The notes: generated by a model from the letters alone, not told the origin. DNA of 43,780 nucleotides from a bacterium (GCA_038145135.1 JAYQPD010000005.1:1-43780); one strand, 5' to 3'; counted from the stretch's first letter, positions 3,361 to 23,499 are shown. Program-made: numbers and translations.

Positions 3361-4707
3361 ATGATAGGGATCAACGGAGCGCTGTTGTTCTTTGGTGATG
3401 TCGCAGTATTCATTGCGGCGCTCTTTTTGGCACTCATGGTCCGTTACCGGGCGTGGCCGAGTGACGCAGTATTGTACGAACACCTTGAGTCGTTCATGGG
3501 GGTGTTCATAGTATGGGGTATCGTATTTCTGATTGCTGGGCTCTATGATGCGCGGGTCAACCTCTCTAGAAAACGCATTCCTGTTTTGATCATCCAAGCA
3601 CAGTTCGTTAACCTTGCGCTTGCGACCGCGGTATTCTTCGTATTTCCCGTCGGCATCACTCCAAAGGTGACGTTAGTACTCTACGGGATCATCTCCACGG
3701 CCCTCATCGCATTCTGGAGACTCTTTATTTTCCCGTACCTTGCTTCAAAGCGTGCACTCCACGCACTCATTGTGGGAGGAGGGGAAGAGGCAGATGCGCT
3801 CCTGCGTATTTTGAATACGGGTGAATTCTTCACGTTCATAAGTGCACAAAAGATAGATCCGGAAGCATATGCCGATCAGGGTACGTTCGCCACGGCACTT
3901 CATGAGCGTGTAGCAAAGGGTGACGTGTCGCTCGTTATTGGGGACACATTGAGTAGCAAGGCAGGGAAACTCGTTGCCTCGTTCTTTGACATTGCTTTCT
4001 TAAACAGACATGCCATGTTCCTCTCGCTCCATCAAGTGTTTGAACAGATCTTTCATCGTATTCCTCCTTCAATGGTTCATGATTCATGGCTACTCGAAAA
4101 TGTTTCCATGCAGCCACATGCGCTCTATGATGTTGCAAAGCGCATCTTTGATATTGGTGGCGCACTTATTCTCGGCATATGTACATTACCGCTCTATCCG
4201 CTCATTATGCTTGCTATATATCTCGATGATCACGGCCCATTCTTCTACCGTACTGAACGCGTAGGTAAATACAACCACACCATTCATCTGATAAAATTTC
4301 GCACCAAAAATGGGCAAGACGTGGGTCAGCAAGCACTTCAGAGCACGTTGGTCGTGACGCGGGTCGGTGGATTTCTGAGGAAGACCAGACTCGACGAACT
4401 GCCTCAGGTTTGGAATATTTTAAAGGGAGATCTTTCATTTATCGGCCCGCGTCCAGAGATGCCAGCACTCGTCTCTGTCTATGAGGGCAAGATCCCGTAC
4501 TATGGCATGCGGCATATGATCACCCCAGGCCTTTCTGGTTGGGCGCAGATCAATGACTTTGATGTTCCGCGAAGCGGCATCGATGTAGAGCGCACCGTTC
4601 AAAAGCTCTCCTTCGACCTCTACTACCTCAAGCACCGGTCGTTCATCCTCGATCTCGAGATCGCCCTTAAAACGATCCGCGCACTCTTATTACGCAGTGG
4701 GACGTGA
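3361..4707 (+). CDS. Polyprenyl-phosphate sugar phosphotransferase (WcaJ/WbaP-like priming glycosyltransferase)
   Basis: N-terminal TM helices, then AKRIFDI, KFRT, FLRKTRLDELPQVWNILKGDLSFIGPRPE, PGLSGWAQI and DLYYLKH. Confidence 0.92.
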   Translation: MIGINGALLFFGDVAVFIAALFLALMVRYRAWPSDAVLYEHLESFMGVFIVWGIVFLIAGLYDARVNLSRKRIPVLIIQAQFVNLALATAVFFVFPVGITPKVTLVLYGIISTALIAFWRLFIFPYLASKRALHALIVGGGEEADALLRILNTGEFFTFISAQKIDPEAYADQGTFATALHERVAKGDVSLVIGDTLSSKAGKLVASFFDIAFLNRHAMFLSLHQVFEQIFHRIPPSMVHDSWLLENVSMQPHALYDVAKRIFDIGGALILGICTLPLYPLIMLAIYLDDHGPFFYRTERVGKYNHTIHLIKFRTKNGQDVGQQALQSTLVVTRVGGFLRKTRLDELPQVWNILKGDLSFIGPRPEMPALVSVYEGKIPYYGMRHMITPGLSGWAQINDFDVPRSGIDVERTVQKLSFDLYYLKHRSFILDLEIALKTIRALLLRSGT

Positions 4708-8852: not shown

Positions 8853-9069
8853 ATGATCATCGGTATCGCAGGTACACTTGGGGCCGGAAAAGGTGAGAAC
8901 GTGTGGGACACGTTCGCAAGACCTTGCCAGCCATCTTTGAGCTTGCGAAAAGATGGTGACAAGGTGTACTGCGCCGGTACGGCGCCCGTGCCGCCATCGT
9001 TCCTCGGCATCGTAACTATACCCTCGCTATGATCATCGGTATCGCAGGTACATTAGGGGCCGGAAAAGG
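8853..9069 (+). repeat. 41-bp direct repeat (8853-8893 / 9029-9069) duplicating the first 14 codons of the downstream kinase gene
   Basis: atgatcatcggtatcgcaggtaca(ctt/tta)ggggccggaaaagg. The only differences fall in one synonymous Leu codon. Confidence 0.95.
8894..9028. mobile_element. Small structured insertion (putative non-autonomous element), copy 1
   Basis: Lies between direct repeats. Hairpins: gaacgtgt-ggg-acacgttc, accttg..ccatcttt/aaagatgg..caaggt (8921-8965) and gcgccg-GTA-cggcgc. Same architecture as 22294-22379. Confidence 0.6.
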
Positions 9070-9592
9070 CACGGTCGTCGAATACCTAAAGACCCAAGGA
9101 TTCGCACACTACTCAAGCTCAAGCACCCTCAAAGACCTGTTGACCGAACGAGCGCTTCCACCAAACAGGGCAAATCTCTCAGAACTTGCCAATGAGCTAT
9201 CGCTTCAATATCCCGGGGGCATCCTTGGCTTGAACCATAAACGAGCACAAGAAGACGGATACGCCGACTATGTACTTGAGTCGCTCCATCGTTTGCACGA
9301 GGCAGAATACGTTCGAAGCATCAAAGGTGTCATCCTCGGTGTCGATGCTGACGTAAAGCTCCGCTACGAACGTGTCATACAACGAAAGGAGGGTGAAAAA
9401 GATAATGTGACATACGAACAGTTCCTCTCTGATGTCGAGCGTGAAGAAGAGGGGAGTCAGGGAGGTGATGGGCCAAACATTCGCGCAATACTCAAGGTGG
9501 CCGATGAGATCATCGAGAACAATGGCTCACTCGCTGAGCTTCACAAAAAGATCGATACGTTCTTGATGCGCGAGCGCGCACGAGTTGCATAA
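9029..9592 (+). CDS. P-loop nucleotide kinase (dephospho-CoA/NMP kinase-like)
   Basis: N-terminal Walker A GTLGAGKGT, RYERVIQR lid and ADEIIENNGSL C-terminus. Confidence 0.8.
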   Translation: MIIGIAGTLGAGKGTVVEYLKTQGFAHYSSSSTLKDLLTERALPPNRANLSELANELSLQYPGGILGLNHKRAQEDGYADYVLESLHRLHEAEYVRSIKGVILGVDADVKLRYERVIQRKEGEKDNVTYEQFLSDVEREEEGSQGGDGPNIRAILKVADEIIENNGSLAELHKKIDTFLMRERARVA

Positions 9593-11154: not shown

Positions 11155-12934
<1,780 letters not shown>

Positions 12935-12963
12935 ATTTTAAACTCCACTATATATTGTGAGAA

Positions 12964-13004
12964 CAAAAACCCCTCGATTCCACTATGGAATCGAGGGGTT
13001 TTTG
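12964..13004. terminator. Bidirectional intrinsic terminator between 16S and pilin-like gene
   Basis: caaaaacccctcgattcca-cta-tggaatcgaggggtttttg. Confidence 0.9.
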
Positions 13005-13017
13005 CGAAACAACGTAG

Positions 13018-13431
13018 TTAATAGAACGAACCCGAGGTGAAGCCATCGCTTGATCCATAATCACGATACTGACTATAGCAGTCTCGATTGAAGTCAGGAC
13101 ACGGCACACTCGACTTATTGATGTCGAACGCACCCATGGCCATGCGCACGATACCCCAGATAGAGATCATGATGACGAGGCCAAGTACGCCATAGAGAAG
13201 GAGGCGCTTTCCAGAATCCCGTCCCTCCTCAGTACTTCCTTTGAAAATGAAGAATTTTGCGAACCCCCAGATAAGGAACAGGAATGCGATCGAGAAGATA
13301 AGAGGAACCAGTACGTTGTTCACAAATCCGAGGAACACAATGAGCTGACTCTGAATCGACGTGTTACCGGCAGCGAAAGCGCAAAGTGGTAGGAGTGCCA
13401 TCGGTACTATGAGACCAAGGTATCGTTTCAT
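13018..13431 (-). CDS. TrbC/VirB2-like pilin family membrane protein
   Basis: Signal peptide ending AFA, then two hydrophobic helices separated by a charged loop (GSTEEGRDSGKRLLLYGVLGL...WGIV). Pattern of CPR VirB2-like pilins. Confidence 0.72.
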   Translation of the reverse strand: MKRYLGLIVPMALLPLCAFAAGNTSIQSQLIVFLGFVNNVLVPLIFSIAFLFLIWGFAKFFIFKGSTEEGRDSGKRLLLYGVLGLVIMISIWGIVRMAMGAFDINKSSVPCPDFNRDCYSQYRDYGSSDGFTSGSFY

Positions 13432-13527
13432 ACCTGTAATAATAACGCATATTCAAAGCTCTGCCATTGCACATCTCCGCAAGTTTGGTAGTGTAAAAGT
13501 AGGTGCAAGAGCGTGAGGAGTACTACC

Positions 13528-13764
13528 ATGTCAAAGCATCGTCAAGTGCAACCAGTGCAGGTCGCGTTTCGCGGGAGGAAGATCAACTTCAACCTTGGAG
13601 TAGAGCTACTCTCGTCTGCTACCAATCGCACTCGTGGCGAATGTGCCAGGCTCCTCAATTGCGCAAGTCGAAGAGAGCTCGATTGCTACTTGAGGGGGAA
13701 ATACAACCCTTCACAGCTACTCGTGGATAAACTCTCGAGTGAGCTCCATAACGCTTTCGCTTAA
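13528..13764 (+). CDS. Small protein, possible Cro/C1-type helix-turn-helix
   Basis: GAGGAG upstream. TRGECARLLNCASRRELDCYLRGKYNPSQLLVDKLS resembles the XRE HTH pattern. Followed by a terminator. Confidence 0.55.
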   Translation: MSKHRQVQPVQVAFRGRKINFNLGVELLSSATNRTRGECARLLNCASRRELDCYLRGKYNPSQLLVDKLSSELHNAFA

Positions 13765-13777
13765 AATAGCAACGTAG

Positions 13778-13803
13778 AGCCGACGCGTCCGCGTCGGCTT
13801 TTT
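13778..13803 (+). terminator. Intrinsic terminator
   Basis: agccgacgcg-tc-cgcgtcggct-tttt. Confidence 0.8.
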
Positions 13804-13809
13804 CATTTG

Positions 13810-13882
13810 TGCGCGTTCTAGGGTTCGAACCTAGGACCTTTCGAGTATCAGTCGAATGCTCTACCAACTGAGCTAAACGCGC
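13810..13882 (-). tRNA. tRNA-Ile(GAT), CCA not encoded
   Basis: Reverse complement is gcgcgtttagctcagttggtagagca-ttcga-ctGATac-tcgaa-aggtc-ctaggttcgaaccctag-aacgcgc-a. Confidence 0.96.
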
Positions 13883-13976
13883 ATTATATTGGTGTTGGCG
13901 TCATCTTTATGCCGTGTGATAGTACCAGAAAAACACCCCATTTTCAACTCTGATATAGTAGAGGTGATTCAGAAAT

Positions 13977-21997: not shown

Positions 21998-22035
21998 CTT
22001 TGTCCGCGTATTCTGTCTTGCACGGGCACGTGGCG

Positions 22036-22107
22036 ACCCCGCACTAAAAATCTCACTACGTGCCATATGTCGGTATTATTGGTCAAAATTGGATTTTAGT
22101 ACGGGGT
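22036..22107. repeat. MITE/REP-like palindromic insert with ~16-bp imperfect terminal inverted repeats
   Basis: accccgcactaaaaatc (22036-22052) versus gattttagtacggggt (22092-22107). Confidence 0.65.
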
Positions 22108-22162
22108 AAAAATTGGTAGATGAATAGTCTCGGAGACTATTCACGTCGTTCATTCTTACTGT

Positions 22163-22246
22163 GCCGAAGTGGCGAAATTGGTAGACGCGCTACGTTCAGG
22201 TCGTAGTCCTCGTAAGGGGATGGAGGTTCGAGTCCTCTCTTCGGCA
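22163..22246 (+). tRNA. tRNA-Leu(CAG), CCA not encoded
   Basis: gccgaag-tg-gcgaaattggtagacgc-g-ctacg-ttCAGgt-cgtag, long variable arm, ggaggttcgagtcctct-cttcggc-a. Confidence 0.97.
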
Positions 22247-22254
22247 CAGTAAGC

Positions 22255-22381
22255 GGGAACACTGCGTAAAAAGCGAAGCTTTTTATAGAGGACTCGAAAA
22301 GTCTGAGTATATCGCGCGACTGAAAGGAGCACGATACGAAGACTGTACCGAACTCGTAGAGTTTGAGTCTCCCCGTGCCCA
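22255..22381. mobile_element. Small structured element downstream of tRNA-Leu (putative non-autonomous element), copy 2; left boundary approximate
   Basis: taaaaagc-GAA-gcttttta, then agaggactcgaa (antisense to the tRNA T-arm), a 45-nt stem at 22300-22344, GTAC, cgaactc-GTA-gagtttg and cccgtgcc. Confidence 0.55.
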
Positions 22382-22484
22382 CAAAAAGCGCAGCGATCAT
22401 AGAGAAACTCACACTTATGACGTTGAGGATGTGCGCAACAGTCGGTATGCTGAAACTAGACCAAGCTACAAGTGAGGACGAACC

Positions 22485-22898
22485 ATGGTTCACACCATCA
22501 CTCGCTTCGCTCTTTCCGAAGCACAAAACCACCGATGTTGTTACTGTTCGTGCGAGATGACGCTCGAATGTGATGATGCCCCCACAATGGCAACGCGCGA
22601 ACATCTCATTCCACGAGTATTTAACGGACCGACAGAGTGGTGGAATCTCGTTGCTGCGTGTCATGAGTGCAACGCCACACGTGGTCATATGAATGCACTT
22701 GCGTTCTACTGGCTTCGTCTCACGATGAGTATTGCATCCATACGTGTGATACGGTACAACCTGCTTATTCTTGCCTACGAACGGTACGAGAAGAGAACGG
22801 TCGGGAAATCAGTAGTCGTATTCACGTTCTTACGAAGACTGTTCGGGCATACACCCGAAGTTCCCGCGGTGTCCCTCAAATGGACAGCTGGTCAATAG
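22485..22898 (+). CDS. HNH endonuclease
   Basis: CCYC...ATREHLIPR..NG....NLVAACHECNATRG. Confidence 0.88.
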   Translation: MVHTITRFALSEAQNHRCCYCSCEMTLECDDAPTMATREHLIPRVFNGPTEWWNLVAACHECNATRGHMNALAFYWLRLTMSIASIRVIRYNLLILAYERYEKRTVGKSVVVFTFLRRLFGHTPEVPAVSLKWTAGQ

Positions 22899-23499
22899 GC
22901 CAGCTTTTCTTTATGATGGCACGAGAAAGAGAGGTTCAGGATGACATTCAAAGAACGTTTTCTTGAGGCGAGAGACAAAGGTCTGCCGGCACAAGAGTCT
23001 TGGAAACGCCGCGCAGCTGTGTGGAAACACGATCAATCTCATCACAGTGAATTCGTAGGTGAAGAGATGATCATGTCTCTCACAACACCACTCGAACGGT
23101 TGACGCTGGAAGACTTTGAGTATGTGTTGTTGGCGGGAGCGCGAAGTGATGCCCTCTACATCTCACTCTACCTTCGGCATACATTGTCGCAGGATGATGC
23201 ACTCGAAGTTATGGTGCACTATCAAACGGCGTTCATTGAGCCACTTCATGAGACTGGATGCTACTGCTGTTTCAGCGCACCGTTCAGTGATGTAACTGGA
23301 TGCGGTAGTATGGGGATCATCCTATTCAGTGTCAGCGATATACCACCAGAGGAGCAGGCGCGTCGTTTGATATCTGTTGATGAAGTGTCTAGAAAGCTTG
23401 AATCACTCGGCTGTATGCAGATTGATGATGTCTCTCTTAAAATGCACTGATATCGAGAAATAGGTACGCTGGCCAATAGGCCAGCTTTTCTTTATGATG
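22887..23499 (+). repeat. 32-bp direct repeat (22887-22918 / 23468-23499) comprising a terminator hairpin plus TATGAT -10 box
   Basis: gctgg(t/c)caataggccagcttttctttatgatg, one mismatch. Flanks the 22941-23450 ORF. Confidence 0.92.
22941..23450 (+). CDS. Hypothetical protein (orphan cargo between direct repeats)
   Basis: 169-aa ORF with GAGAGG upstream. No recognised motif. Confidence 0.65.
   Translation: MTFKERFLEARDKGLPAQESWKRRAAVWKHDQSHHSEFVGEEMIMSLTTPLERLTLEDFEYVLLAGARSDALYISLYLRHTLSQDDALEVMVHYQTAFIEPLHETGCYCCFSAPFSDVTGCGSMGIILFSVSDIPPEEQARRLISVDEVSRKLESLGCMQIDDVSLKMH

Follow-up and report, generated by a model that had tools for sequence, protein, structure and literature searches.

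Non-coding inserts with a two-hairpin core and copies of their targets in one order of Patescibacteria

Two inserts in a 43,780-nucleotide (nt) stretch of a bacterial genome (GCA_038145135.1 JAYQPD010000005.1:1-43780; the whole stretch is called the window here) are copies of an abundant non-coding family confined to one order of Patescibacteria. Copy 1 lies at the start of a P-loop kinase gene, and copy 2 lies behind the gene for a transfer RNA (tRNA), tRNA-Leu(CAG). Members of the family share a conserved core, composed of a junction YGAAR or GCAAG, a hairpin (P2), the tetranucleotide GTAC and a second hairpin (P3) with a GTA triloop, and upstream of this core there is often one more hairpin. 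On its 3' side, the core is followed by a direct repeat of the target, and on its 5' side it is preceded by that stretch in reverse complement. Since the sites are filled in some relatives and empty in others, the element is mobile, and we have moderate confidence in its interpretation as a mobile, non-autonomous element that copies its target.

An abundant structured family

A preliminary description, made from the sequence of the window alone, had proposed that the two inserts represent a structure-defined family mobilized in trans by a transposase of the HUH (Y1) type. Every motif that it listed was found at the stated coordinates. A covariance model was seeded with 8 copies whose structure was set by hand, since MAFFT by itself misaligned P2, and the rebuilt model (R2) was derived from 33 copies re-aligned by Infernal. 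The supposed family of two proved to be much larger: the genome from which the window derives (G000; 945,651 bases, ~0.95 Mb) contains 31 model matches at an expectation value (E) of ≤0.01, 29 of them at E≤1.4e-5. A search of 151 genomes of the order detected matches in 96 and none in the other 55, with at least 846 matches in total and 1 to at least 29 per genome, these per-genome counts being lower bounds because scoring was limited to 29 candidates per genome. Outside the order, only 1 of 150 genomes sampled across the phylum had a match.

The notion of a family defined by structure held up well. In the 33-copy alignment, 88.3% of the pair cells were paired, compared to 62.1% in shuffled alignments (0 of 500 shuffles reached the observed value), pairing fell to 32 to 50% when the partners were slid against each other, and 16 of the 18 pairs showed changes on both sides. 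The closing stem of P2 was paired in 97.5% of cells, with all 5 of its pairs varying on both sides, and P3 was paired in 93.1%. G.T cells outnumbered A.C cells 41 to 15, an excess consistent with a fold that belongs to a single strand, the tRNA-sense strand. The junction reads GTAC in 25 copies, ATAC in 4, GAAC in 3 and GTAG in 1, and GTA forms the P3 loop in each of the 32 copies that align at this position; the apex of P2 carries GCGNAGC in 8 of the 33 copies. P2 had been taken to have a fixed length of 45 nt, yet it ranges from 34 to 51 nt in the nine copies measured. RNAfold recovered P2 and P3 of copy 1; for copy 2, it did so only in a longer context, a 121-nt cut-out being folded otherwise.

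The narrow pattern GTAC-N7-GTA-N(5-14)-CCCGTGCC occurs twice in the whole source genome and matches copies in 8 of 401 genomes of the order, against 2 genomes for a reversed control pattern, while a variant with N7-14 has 1 match in the window and 0 in 100 shuffles. The inserts are 90 to 180 nt long and contain no open reading frame (ORF) of their own. Neither copy matches a described RNA family; in a search of the window against Rfam 15, which includes RtT, tRNA-like and ribozyme families, only the 16S rRNA (ribosomal RNA) and two tRNAs passed at gathering scores, and a search of both copies at E≤10 gave best rows at chance level (E=2.3 and E=3.7). A blastn search of the element against phage and plasmid records found no match. 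At least 120 viral stretches were retrieved with a 14-base pattern, but none of the 80 listed matched model R2 at E≤0.001, and we attribute these hits to chance. A likeness to hammerhead, twister and group II intron 5' ends (GUGAGA) was dropped because the core motifs are absent and Rfam is silent, and coding by the insert was rejected, as peptides are conserved only where the nucleotides are.

Target copies at tRNA genes and at the kinase gene

With the tRNA genes of the source genome called by ARAGORN, 16 of the 29 copies proved to have one within 500 nt; every one of these 16 is located downstream of the tRNA on the same strand, leaving the other three arrangements unrepresented. When the best copy from each of 20 other genomes was inspected, 17 had a co-oriented upstream tRNA, of many identities, and in 14 of these 17, 9 to 45 nt of the tRNA 3' end were repeated, mostly beginning at TTCRA. 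Exact direct repeats of 14 to 34 nt accompany 12 of the 29 copies in the source genome, and inverted target copies of 10 to 20 nt accompany 10. In a full unit, the tRNA is followed by a short trailer, often with a terminator-like hairpin, and then by the reverse complement of the acceptor 3' strand, often together with the trailer. A hairpin comes next, often with a CTGGGAG-like loop, and is followed by a reverse-complement copy of the T-loop and of the 3' strand of the T-stem, whose last letters are YGAA. Then come one or two purines, P2, GTAC and P3; the 3' strand of P3 continues into TTCR and thus into the direct repeat of the tRNA, from T54 to the 3' end, sometimes with trailer, up to 14 nt or more. 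With an inverted copy of the target on the 5' side and a direct copy on the 3' side, the sense strand, when single stranded, can form an extended stem with P2 and P3 at its tip.

Copy 2 and its target, tRNA-Leu(CAG), illustrate this layout:

22163-22247, plus strand: tRNA-Leu(CAG), the target; copy 2 begins 45 nt downstream
22248-22286, plus strand: linker with the hairpin AAAAAGC-GAA-GCTTTTT (22268-22284), at the position of hairpin A of copy 1 or of a terminator-like apex
22287-22298, plus strand: left arm AGAGGACTCGAA, the exact reverse complement of the tRNA T-loop and T-stem 3' strand (22227-22238)
22294-22299, plus strand: TCGAAA, the end of the left arm
22300-22344, plus strand: P2, a 45-nt hairpin with outer stem AGTCT/AGACT and inner stem TATCGCGC/GCACGATA, the latter with one C.A mismatch
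22345-22348, plus strand: junction GTAC
22349-22365, plus strand: P3, CGAACTC-GTA-GAGTTTG, whose 3' strand continues into the T-loop-like TTTGA
22362-22384, plus strand: right arm TTTGAGTCTCCCCGTGCCCACAA, which corresponds to a tRNA-Leu tail (T-loop through 3' end) and its trailer
22372-22379, plus strand: CCCGTGCC, inside the right arm

Both CCCGTGCC and TCGAA had been read as conserved parts of the element. Because the flanks repeat the end of the adjoining tRNA, CCCGTGCC is derived from the target and is not a family box, and TCGAA is likewise copied from the target. In the flanks of the copies found with the narrow pattern, the CCCGTGCC stretch proved to be the tail of the neighboring tRNA-Cys or tRNA-Leu(CAG), repeated behind the element. 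In three other genomes (G084, G107 and G003), the elements likewise terminate in TCTCCCCGTGCC with CACAA after it; the right arm of copy 2 is of the G084 tail type, which in G084 equals the 3' end of the adjacent tRNA-Leu(CAG) over 30 nt. The P2 subfamily of copy 2 is also present behind tRNA-Cys and tRNA-Tyr and at three other places in the source genome. Its arms match tRNA-Cys, with a 23-nt repeat, and, on the left side, tRNA-Leu(CAG); the copy behind tRNA-Tyr has only a partial right arm. That one core subfamily carries arms matched to different tRNAs shows that the core spreads while the arms are fitted to each site.

Variants of the layout were observed in two relatives. In G107 (locus L003, 1241-1392), a partial copy of tRNA-Leu precedes the core, with an anticodon-arm-like stretch in which GAG replaces CAG, and a variable arm and a full T-arm follow P3; the target copy can thus extend into the tRNA beyond T54. 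In G055 (locus L207, 1580-1840), a different, GC-rich core of ~95 nt lies behind tRNA-Leu(CAG), and the tail copies around it are again direct, inverted and direct, indicating that the arm layout is common to at least two unrelated cores. The tRNA-Leu(CAG) site is filled in the source genome and in 3 of 9 other loci of the taxonomic family (G416, G418 and G425); G403 retains only a remnant resembling the right arm, G055 has the other core, and the remaining loci had no match.

Copy 1 is a 135-nt insert within a repeat of the kinase gene start:

8853-8893, plus strand: direct repeat 1, the first 41 nt of the kinase gene from ATG to GGAAAAGG, 39 of 41 positions identical to 9029-9069
8894-9028, plus strand: insert, copy 1, bracketed by the two 41-nt repeats of the kinase gene start
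8894-8920, plus strand: 5' module, consisting of (G)TGAGA, hairpin A (GAACGTGT-GGG-ACACGTTC, 8897-8915) and the junction GCAAG, from sequence and RNAfold
8914-8920, plus strand: TCGCAAG, as read in the sequence
8921-8965, plus strand: P2, a 45-nt hairpin with outer stem ACCTTG/CAAGGT and inner stem CCATCTTT/AAAGATGG, from sequence, RNAfold and covariation in the family
8966-8969, plus strand: junction GTAC, from the alignment of 33 copies
8970-8986, plus strand: P3, GCGCCG-GTA-CGGCGC, from sequence, RNAfold and pairing in the family
8986-8992, plus strand: CCGTGCC, the reverse complement of kinase GGCACGG (9068-9074, spanning the right edge of direct repeat 2)
8993-9028, plus strand: 36-nt spacer brought by the insert, dissimilar among the four genomes that bear the insert
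9029-9069, plus strand: direct repeat 2, with which the P-loop kinase gene proper begins (9029-9592; Pfam AAA_18, CoaE)

Both copies had been suspected to sit at rearrangement scars, and this is borne out by the 41-nt duplication at the kinase gene and by the diverged copy of a tRNA-Leu 3' end with which copy 2 terminates. The kinase gene stays usable because the repeat restores its start. An ORF of 59 codons (8853-9032) runs from direct repeat 1 through the whole insert and ends in an ATGA that overlaps the kinase start; in 3 of the 4 genomes that carry an insert here, the frame opened by the upstream repeat crosses the insert and has its stop in an ATGA at the kinase start, an arrangement that would couple translation of the two frames. 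The module composed of GTGAGA, a hairpin and (T)CGCAAG recurs in G055, G434 and G443 and in three other copies of the source genome (C20:207, C14:21539 and C7:36116), with stems that differ in sequence and remain paired.

Occupancy of the kinase site was determined in 31 loci, those of the source genome, G055 and 29 other genomes of the taxonomic family that were fetched and searched with covariance model R1. The preliminary description had suggested a search for empty-site alleles in close relatives, and the site was filled in only 4 of the 31 loci (G000, G055, G434 and G443); in the 10 empty loci inspected, the end of secF abuts the kinase ATG. The insertion point is identical in all four genomes, after the same GG of the GKG codons. 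The two repeats agree at 39 of 41 positions in the source genome, at 31 of 41 in G055 and at 41 of 41 in G434 and G443. The 7-mer that follows P3 covaries with the kinase sequence, reading CCGTGCC/GGCACGG in G000 and G055, CCGTACC/GGTACGG in G434 and CCGCGCC/GGCGCGG in G443. The core of G443 is 63% identical to the tRNA-Leu(UAA) copy of the source genome, compared to 46 to 47% for the other three kinase copies; as it belongs to another subfamily, the kinase site must have been hit at least twice, by at least two core subfamilies.

Tandem arrays of two or more units, some truncated, are present in the source genome at C4:1-350, C38:100-480 and 3944-4292, and C8:27592-28176; the array at the start of contig C4 does not adjoin any called tRNA. 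At C10:14100-15850, three copies surround a tRNA-like 3' end (CCAGGTTCGAGTCCTGGTCGCGG...) that ARAGORN calls neither a tRNA nor a tmRNA (transfer-messenger RNA). In the window, copy 2 and murD are separated by a gene for an HNH endonuclease (137 amino acids; Pfam HNH and HNH_5) and an ORF of 169 amino acids that matches nothing in Pfam (22485-23450); murD directly follows the tRNA-Leu region in G403 and G418, and the two genes are probably a small separate insertion. The 16S rRNA gene of the window (1459 nt, with several helices shorter than in the Rfam model) is followed by a tRNA-Ile(GAT) gene on the opposite strand (11292-13882).

Mechanism and competing explanations

We infer that the family is a selfish, non-autonomous insertion element that acts via a folded single strand, DNA or RNA, of the tRNA-sense strand. 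For the insertion itself, we prefer a target-templated copy-choice step, although we put this forward only tentatively, and the action of a dedicated enzyme is about equally possible. A nascent strand would fold back behind the target and copy it in reverse, switch into a donor core at the microhomology shared with the T-loop (TTCRA/YGAA) and then return to the target, which could generate the direct-inverted-direct layout with no dedicated transposase. Copy-choice would account both for arms that end exactly at T54 and for the order of the direct and inverted copies.

Several findings weigh against target copying or against the copy-choice step. Template switching leaves the conservation of GTAC, the GTA loop and the upstream CTGGGAG-like loop unexplained, a pattern reminiscent of recognition by a protein. 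Copy 2 has a right arm that differs from the tail of the source genome's own tRNA-Leu, which indicates that arms can also travel with the element. The kinase-type layout departs from that at tRNA genes, in that the inverted copy has only 7 to 8 nt and is located on the 3' side of the core, with the 5' end of the gene as the repeat. In G055, 10 of the 41 positions have diverged between the kinase repeats, yet each repeat specifies MLIGITGTDGAGKG, which points to selection on both repeats, for example through frequent precise loss; the model does not predict this, unless both copies at times serve as the working start of the gene. The covariation values are also favored by the way in which they were obtained, since two of the three helices, P2-outer and P3, belong to the model against which the alignment was made, and related copies are non-independent observations. 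Finally, no intermediate, whether RNA, single-stranded DNA or circle, was seen, the RNA runs examined covering mainly the rRNA gene.

The sequencing data bear on this last point as follows. Twenty runs were listed; three DNA runs from one study contain the window stretch, and the RNA runs contain only 6 to 8% of the sampled words. RNA run X6 covered mainly the 16S part of the window, with a trace depth of 4.2 in the bin that holds copy 2 (22028-22528), and no RNA reads from this organism were found among the 20 runs listed. Contigs of the three DNA runs break at 8876/8909 and resume at 9040, at the kinase repeat, and so give no evidence either way on empty alleles. In each of the three runs, a contig also diverges from the window at 13888 and ends in 255 nt of unattached sequence, implying that another arrangement or a repeat boundary exists there.

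It is conceivable that the units are functional RNAs linked to tRNAs, which would be transcribed with or after the tRNA and form a mimic of the acceptor/T-arm capped by P2 and P3, and they might serve tRNA processing, act as decoys or regulate; the insert in the kinase gene would be a leader whose CCGUGCC pairs with GGCACGG over the gene start. The uniform orientation of the 16 tRNA-linked copies in the source genome, arm pairing kept through G.U pairs, and the compensatory changes at two positions of the 7-mer/kinase pairing among four genomes all fit such a role, and there is a precedent in E. coli, where rtT RNA is reported to be made from the tRNA-linked repeats of the tyrT operon (10.1101/2024.07.17.603846). 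However, a copy number that ranges from 0 to at least 29 within one order (more than a third of the genomes having no match), orthologous sites that are either filled or empty, tandem and decayed copies, insertions into protein genes, and the terminator-like hairpins often found between the tRNA and the core are difficult to reconcile with a function of this kind, for which no RNA reads of the organism were found in the runs listed. We consider this explanation unlikely.

We regard as quite unlikely a model in which the family is a miniature integrative element, a circle of ~100 to 180 nt, probably single stranded, whose arms mimic the duplex tRNA site and which a tyrosine recombinase integrates, so that the repeats correspond to attL and attR, in parallel with IMEX of the CTX-phi type or with CIMEs that lack an integrase. 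The succession of direct repeat, short remainder, inverted copy, loop and direct repeat is that of a folded, single-strand CTX-phi integration; the repeats begin in the T-loop, the classic crossover place of integrases, and cover the rest of the gene, leaving it intact; and the foreign right arm of copy 2 would have been carried in. The source genome encodes one Phage_integrase-family (tyrosine recombinase) protein. This lone recombinase, however, appears to be a housekeeping Xer, and no integrase gene adjoins any copy in the genome. The repeats vary in length from 14 to 45 nt, and a single subfamily is found behind tRNA-Cys, tRNA-Tyr and tRNA-Leu(CAG), with arms matched to tRNA-Cys and tRNA-Leu(CAG) and a partial right arm at tRNA-Tyr; a plain CTX-like model with carried arms fails for this reason, because arms of one core subfamily match different tRNAs.

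The most doubtful of these explanations is the one closest to the preliminary description, in which a Y1 HUH transposase (RAYT) acting in trans cleaves and rejoins the single-stranded DNA of an element that is REP/REPIN-like or derived from IS200/IS605 (PATE-like), with GTAC and P3 in the roles of the REP tetranucleotide and palindrome. The source genome does contain two single-copy RAYT-like Y1 genes with HUH and Tyr motifs, encoding proteins of 223 amino acids (C2:26005-26352; Pfam Y1_Tnp E=8.6e-17) and 211 amino acids (C18:16438-16689; E=1.2e-10). A conserved 4-nt junction 5' of a short hairpin, GNA-type triloops, including GCGNAGC at the apex of P2, and the G.T excess expected of one-strand folding would also suit such an enzyme. 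Yet neither gene is flanked by the element, with no copy found on C2 and the nearest one on C18 ~10 kb away, and the proposed link to HUH/Y1 proteins found no support in a comparison of 151 genomes, in which Y1_Tnp (PF01797) and the element were found together in 56, the element only in 40, Y1_Tnp only in 35 and neither in 20 (odds ratio 0.8, p=0.6). Among the 37 genomes with at least 10 copies, 12 have no Y1_Tnp match, including a single-contig genome with 20 copies. GTAC does precede a 7-bp P3 in 25 of 33 copies, but P3 accounts for only part of a unit that spans at least 85 nt, and the T-loop of the target supplies 4 of the P3 base pairs. The direct repeats of 14 to 45 nt and the inverted target copy are unlike IS200/IS605 and REP elements, which are not known to make target duplications.

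Other candidate partners fared no better. A Pfam search of the source genome found no match to RVT_1, Nop (TIGR-Tas), IS110 DEDD, the TnpB zinc ribbon or resolvases, and a reverse transcriptase, Nop, IS110, TnpB and serine recombinases were rejected as partners on this account. The HNH gene, which begins 106 nt after copy 2, was set aside because, of 150 other genomes of the order, a single one contains homologues.

Relation to known elements and implications

The full layout is common to none of the nearest known systems that we compared. The rtT/RttR units of E. coli (Rfam RF00391) are poorly understood non-coding repeats behind a tRNA, each with a copy of the tRNA 3' end. The present elements resemble these tRNA-linked repeats in being non-coding, in lying directly behind the tRNA and in copying its 3' end, but they have no RtT match in Rfam, and they differ in having a two-hairpin core, an inverted copy of the tail and dozens of tRNAs as targets in a genome, and in being inserted into protein genes as well. 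With the REP, BIME and REPIN-RAYT systems and PATEs, they share small size, abundance, hairpins with no protein of their own, a 4-nt word beside a hairpin and RAYT-like genes in the genome, whereas long direct and inverted target copies, the lack of co-occurrence with Y1_Tnp and Y1 genes that are not flanked by repeats set them apart. PATEs are defined by insertion beside a fixed 4- to 5-nt word with no target-site duplication; here, a 41-nt repeat is present at the kinase gene and repeats of 14 to 45 nt at the tRNA sites, and a Y1 TnpA is not co-distributed. Likewise, the association expected of a RAYT gene, which is flanked by its repeats and co-occurs with them, was not observed.

A direct repeat of the 3' part of the tRNA is present at both ends, as in tRNA islands, and remnants of attL/attR and CIMEs also have a direct repeat of the tRNA 3' end that brackets the insert and leave the tRNA intact; unlike these, our inserts are geneless and 90 to 180 nt long, with a folded core, arms fitted to each tRNA and an inverted target copy, and they contain no integrase gene or remnant and no cargo between the repeats. 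In folded single-strand sites, such as attP(+) of CTX-phi and IMEX or attC of integrons, two inverted arms imitate a duplex site, and the integrated layout is direct, inverted, loop, direct. Inverted arms that fold as a duplex mimic and this same order are found here, but the target is a tRNA tail or the kinase gene in place of attI or of dif, at which XerCD integrates IMEX of the CTX-phi type, and there is no phage genome or cassette. In bacterial MITE-like repeats (Correia, RUP, BOX and ERIC), the terminal inverted repeats belong to the element and are fixed, and the target duplications are short and of constant length. These MITE-like elements too are ~100 to 150 nt long, non-autonomous, structured and sometimes read through by translation or transcription; the "terminal repeats" of our elements, in contrast, are target copies of variable length (14 to 45 nt), with arms that are the local tRNA tail and differ from copy to copy.

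A search of the main texts of papers found no description of such elements. It is possible, though we would not call it likely, that they form a new class of protein-less bacterial insertion element, in which one inverted and one direct target copy are written around a two-hairpin core. The usual target would be a tRNA tail from T54, and once a block of P-loop codons, and the arms would be target-matched guides or be copied at insertion; this joint reading is equally tentative. If it is true, transposition of these elements would proceed by copy-choice, templated by nucleic acid, or would depend on an undiscovered structure-specific enzyme of Patescibacteria. Should the arms be made from or matched to the target, DNA would be inserted at chosen sequences in a manner unlike that of transposases, integrases, group II introns or bridge-RNA recombinases.

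The elements also matter to those who read these genomes. They break short-read assemblies, as illustrated by the contigs that stop at the kinase repeat, and the foreign tRNA tails that they leave behind could be misread as scars of island integration. By rough arithmetic (29 copies of ~100 to 170 nt), they make up ~3 to 5 kb of a 0.95-Mb genome, in organisms that are thought to be streamlined. Elements lie beside about a third of the tRNA genes of the source genome and thus may affect the ends of tRNA transcripts, and the kinase case illustrates how a host gene survives an insertion inside its most conserved motif.

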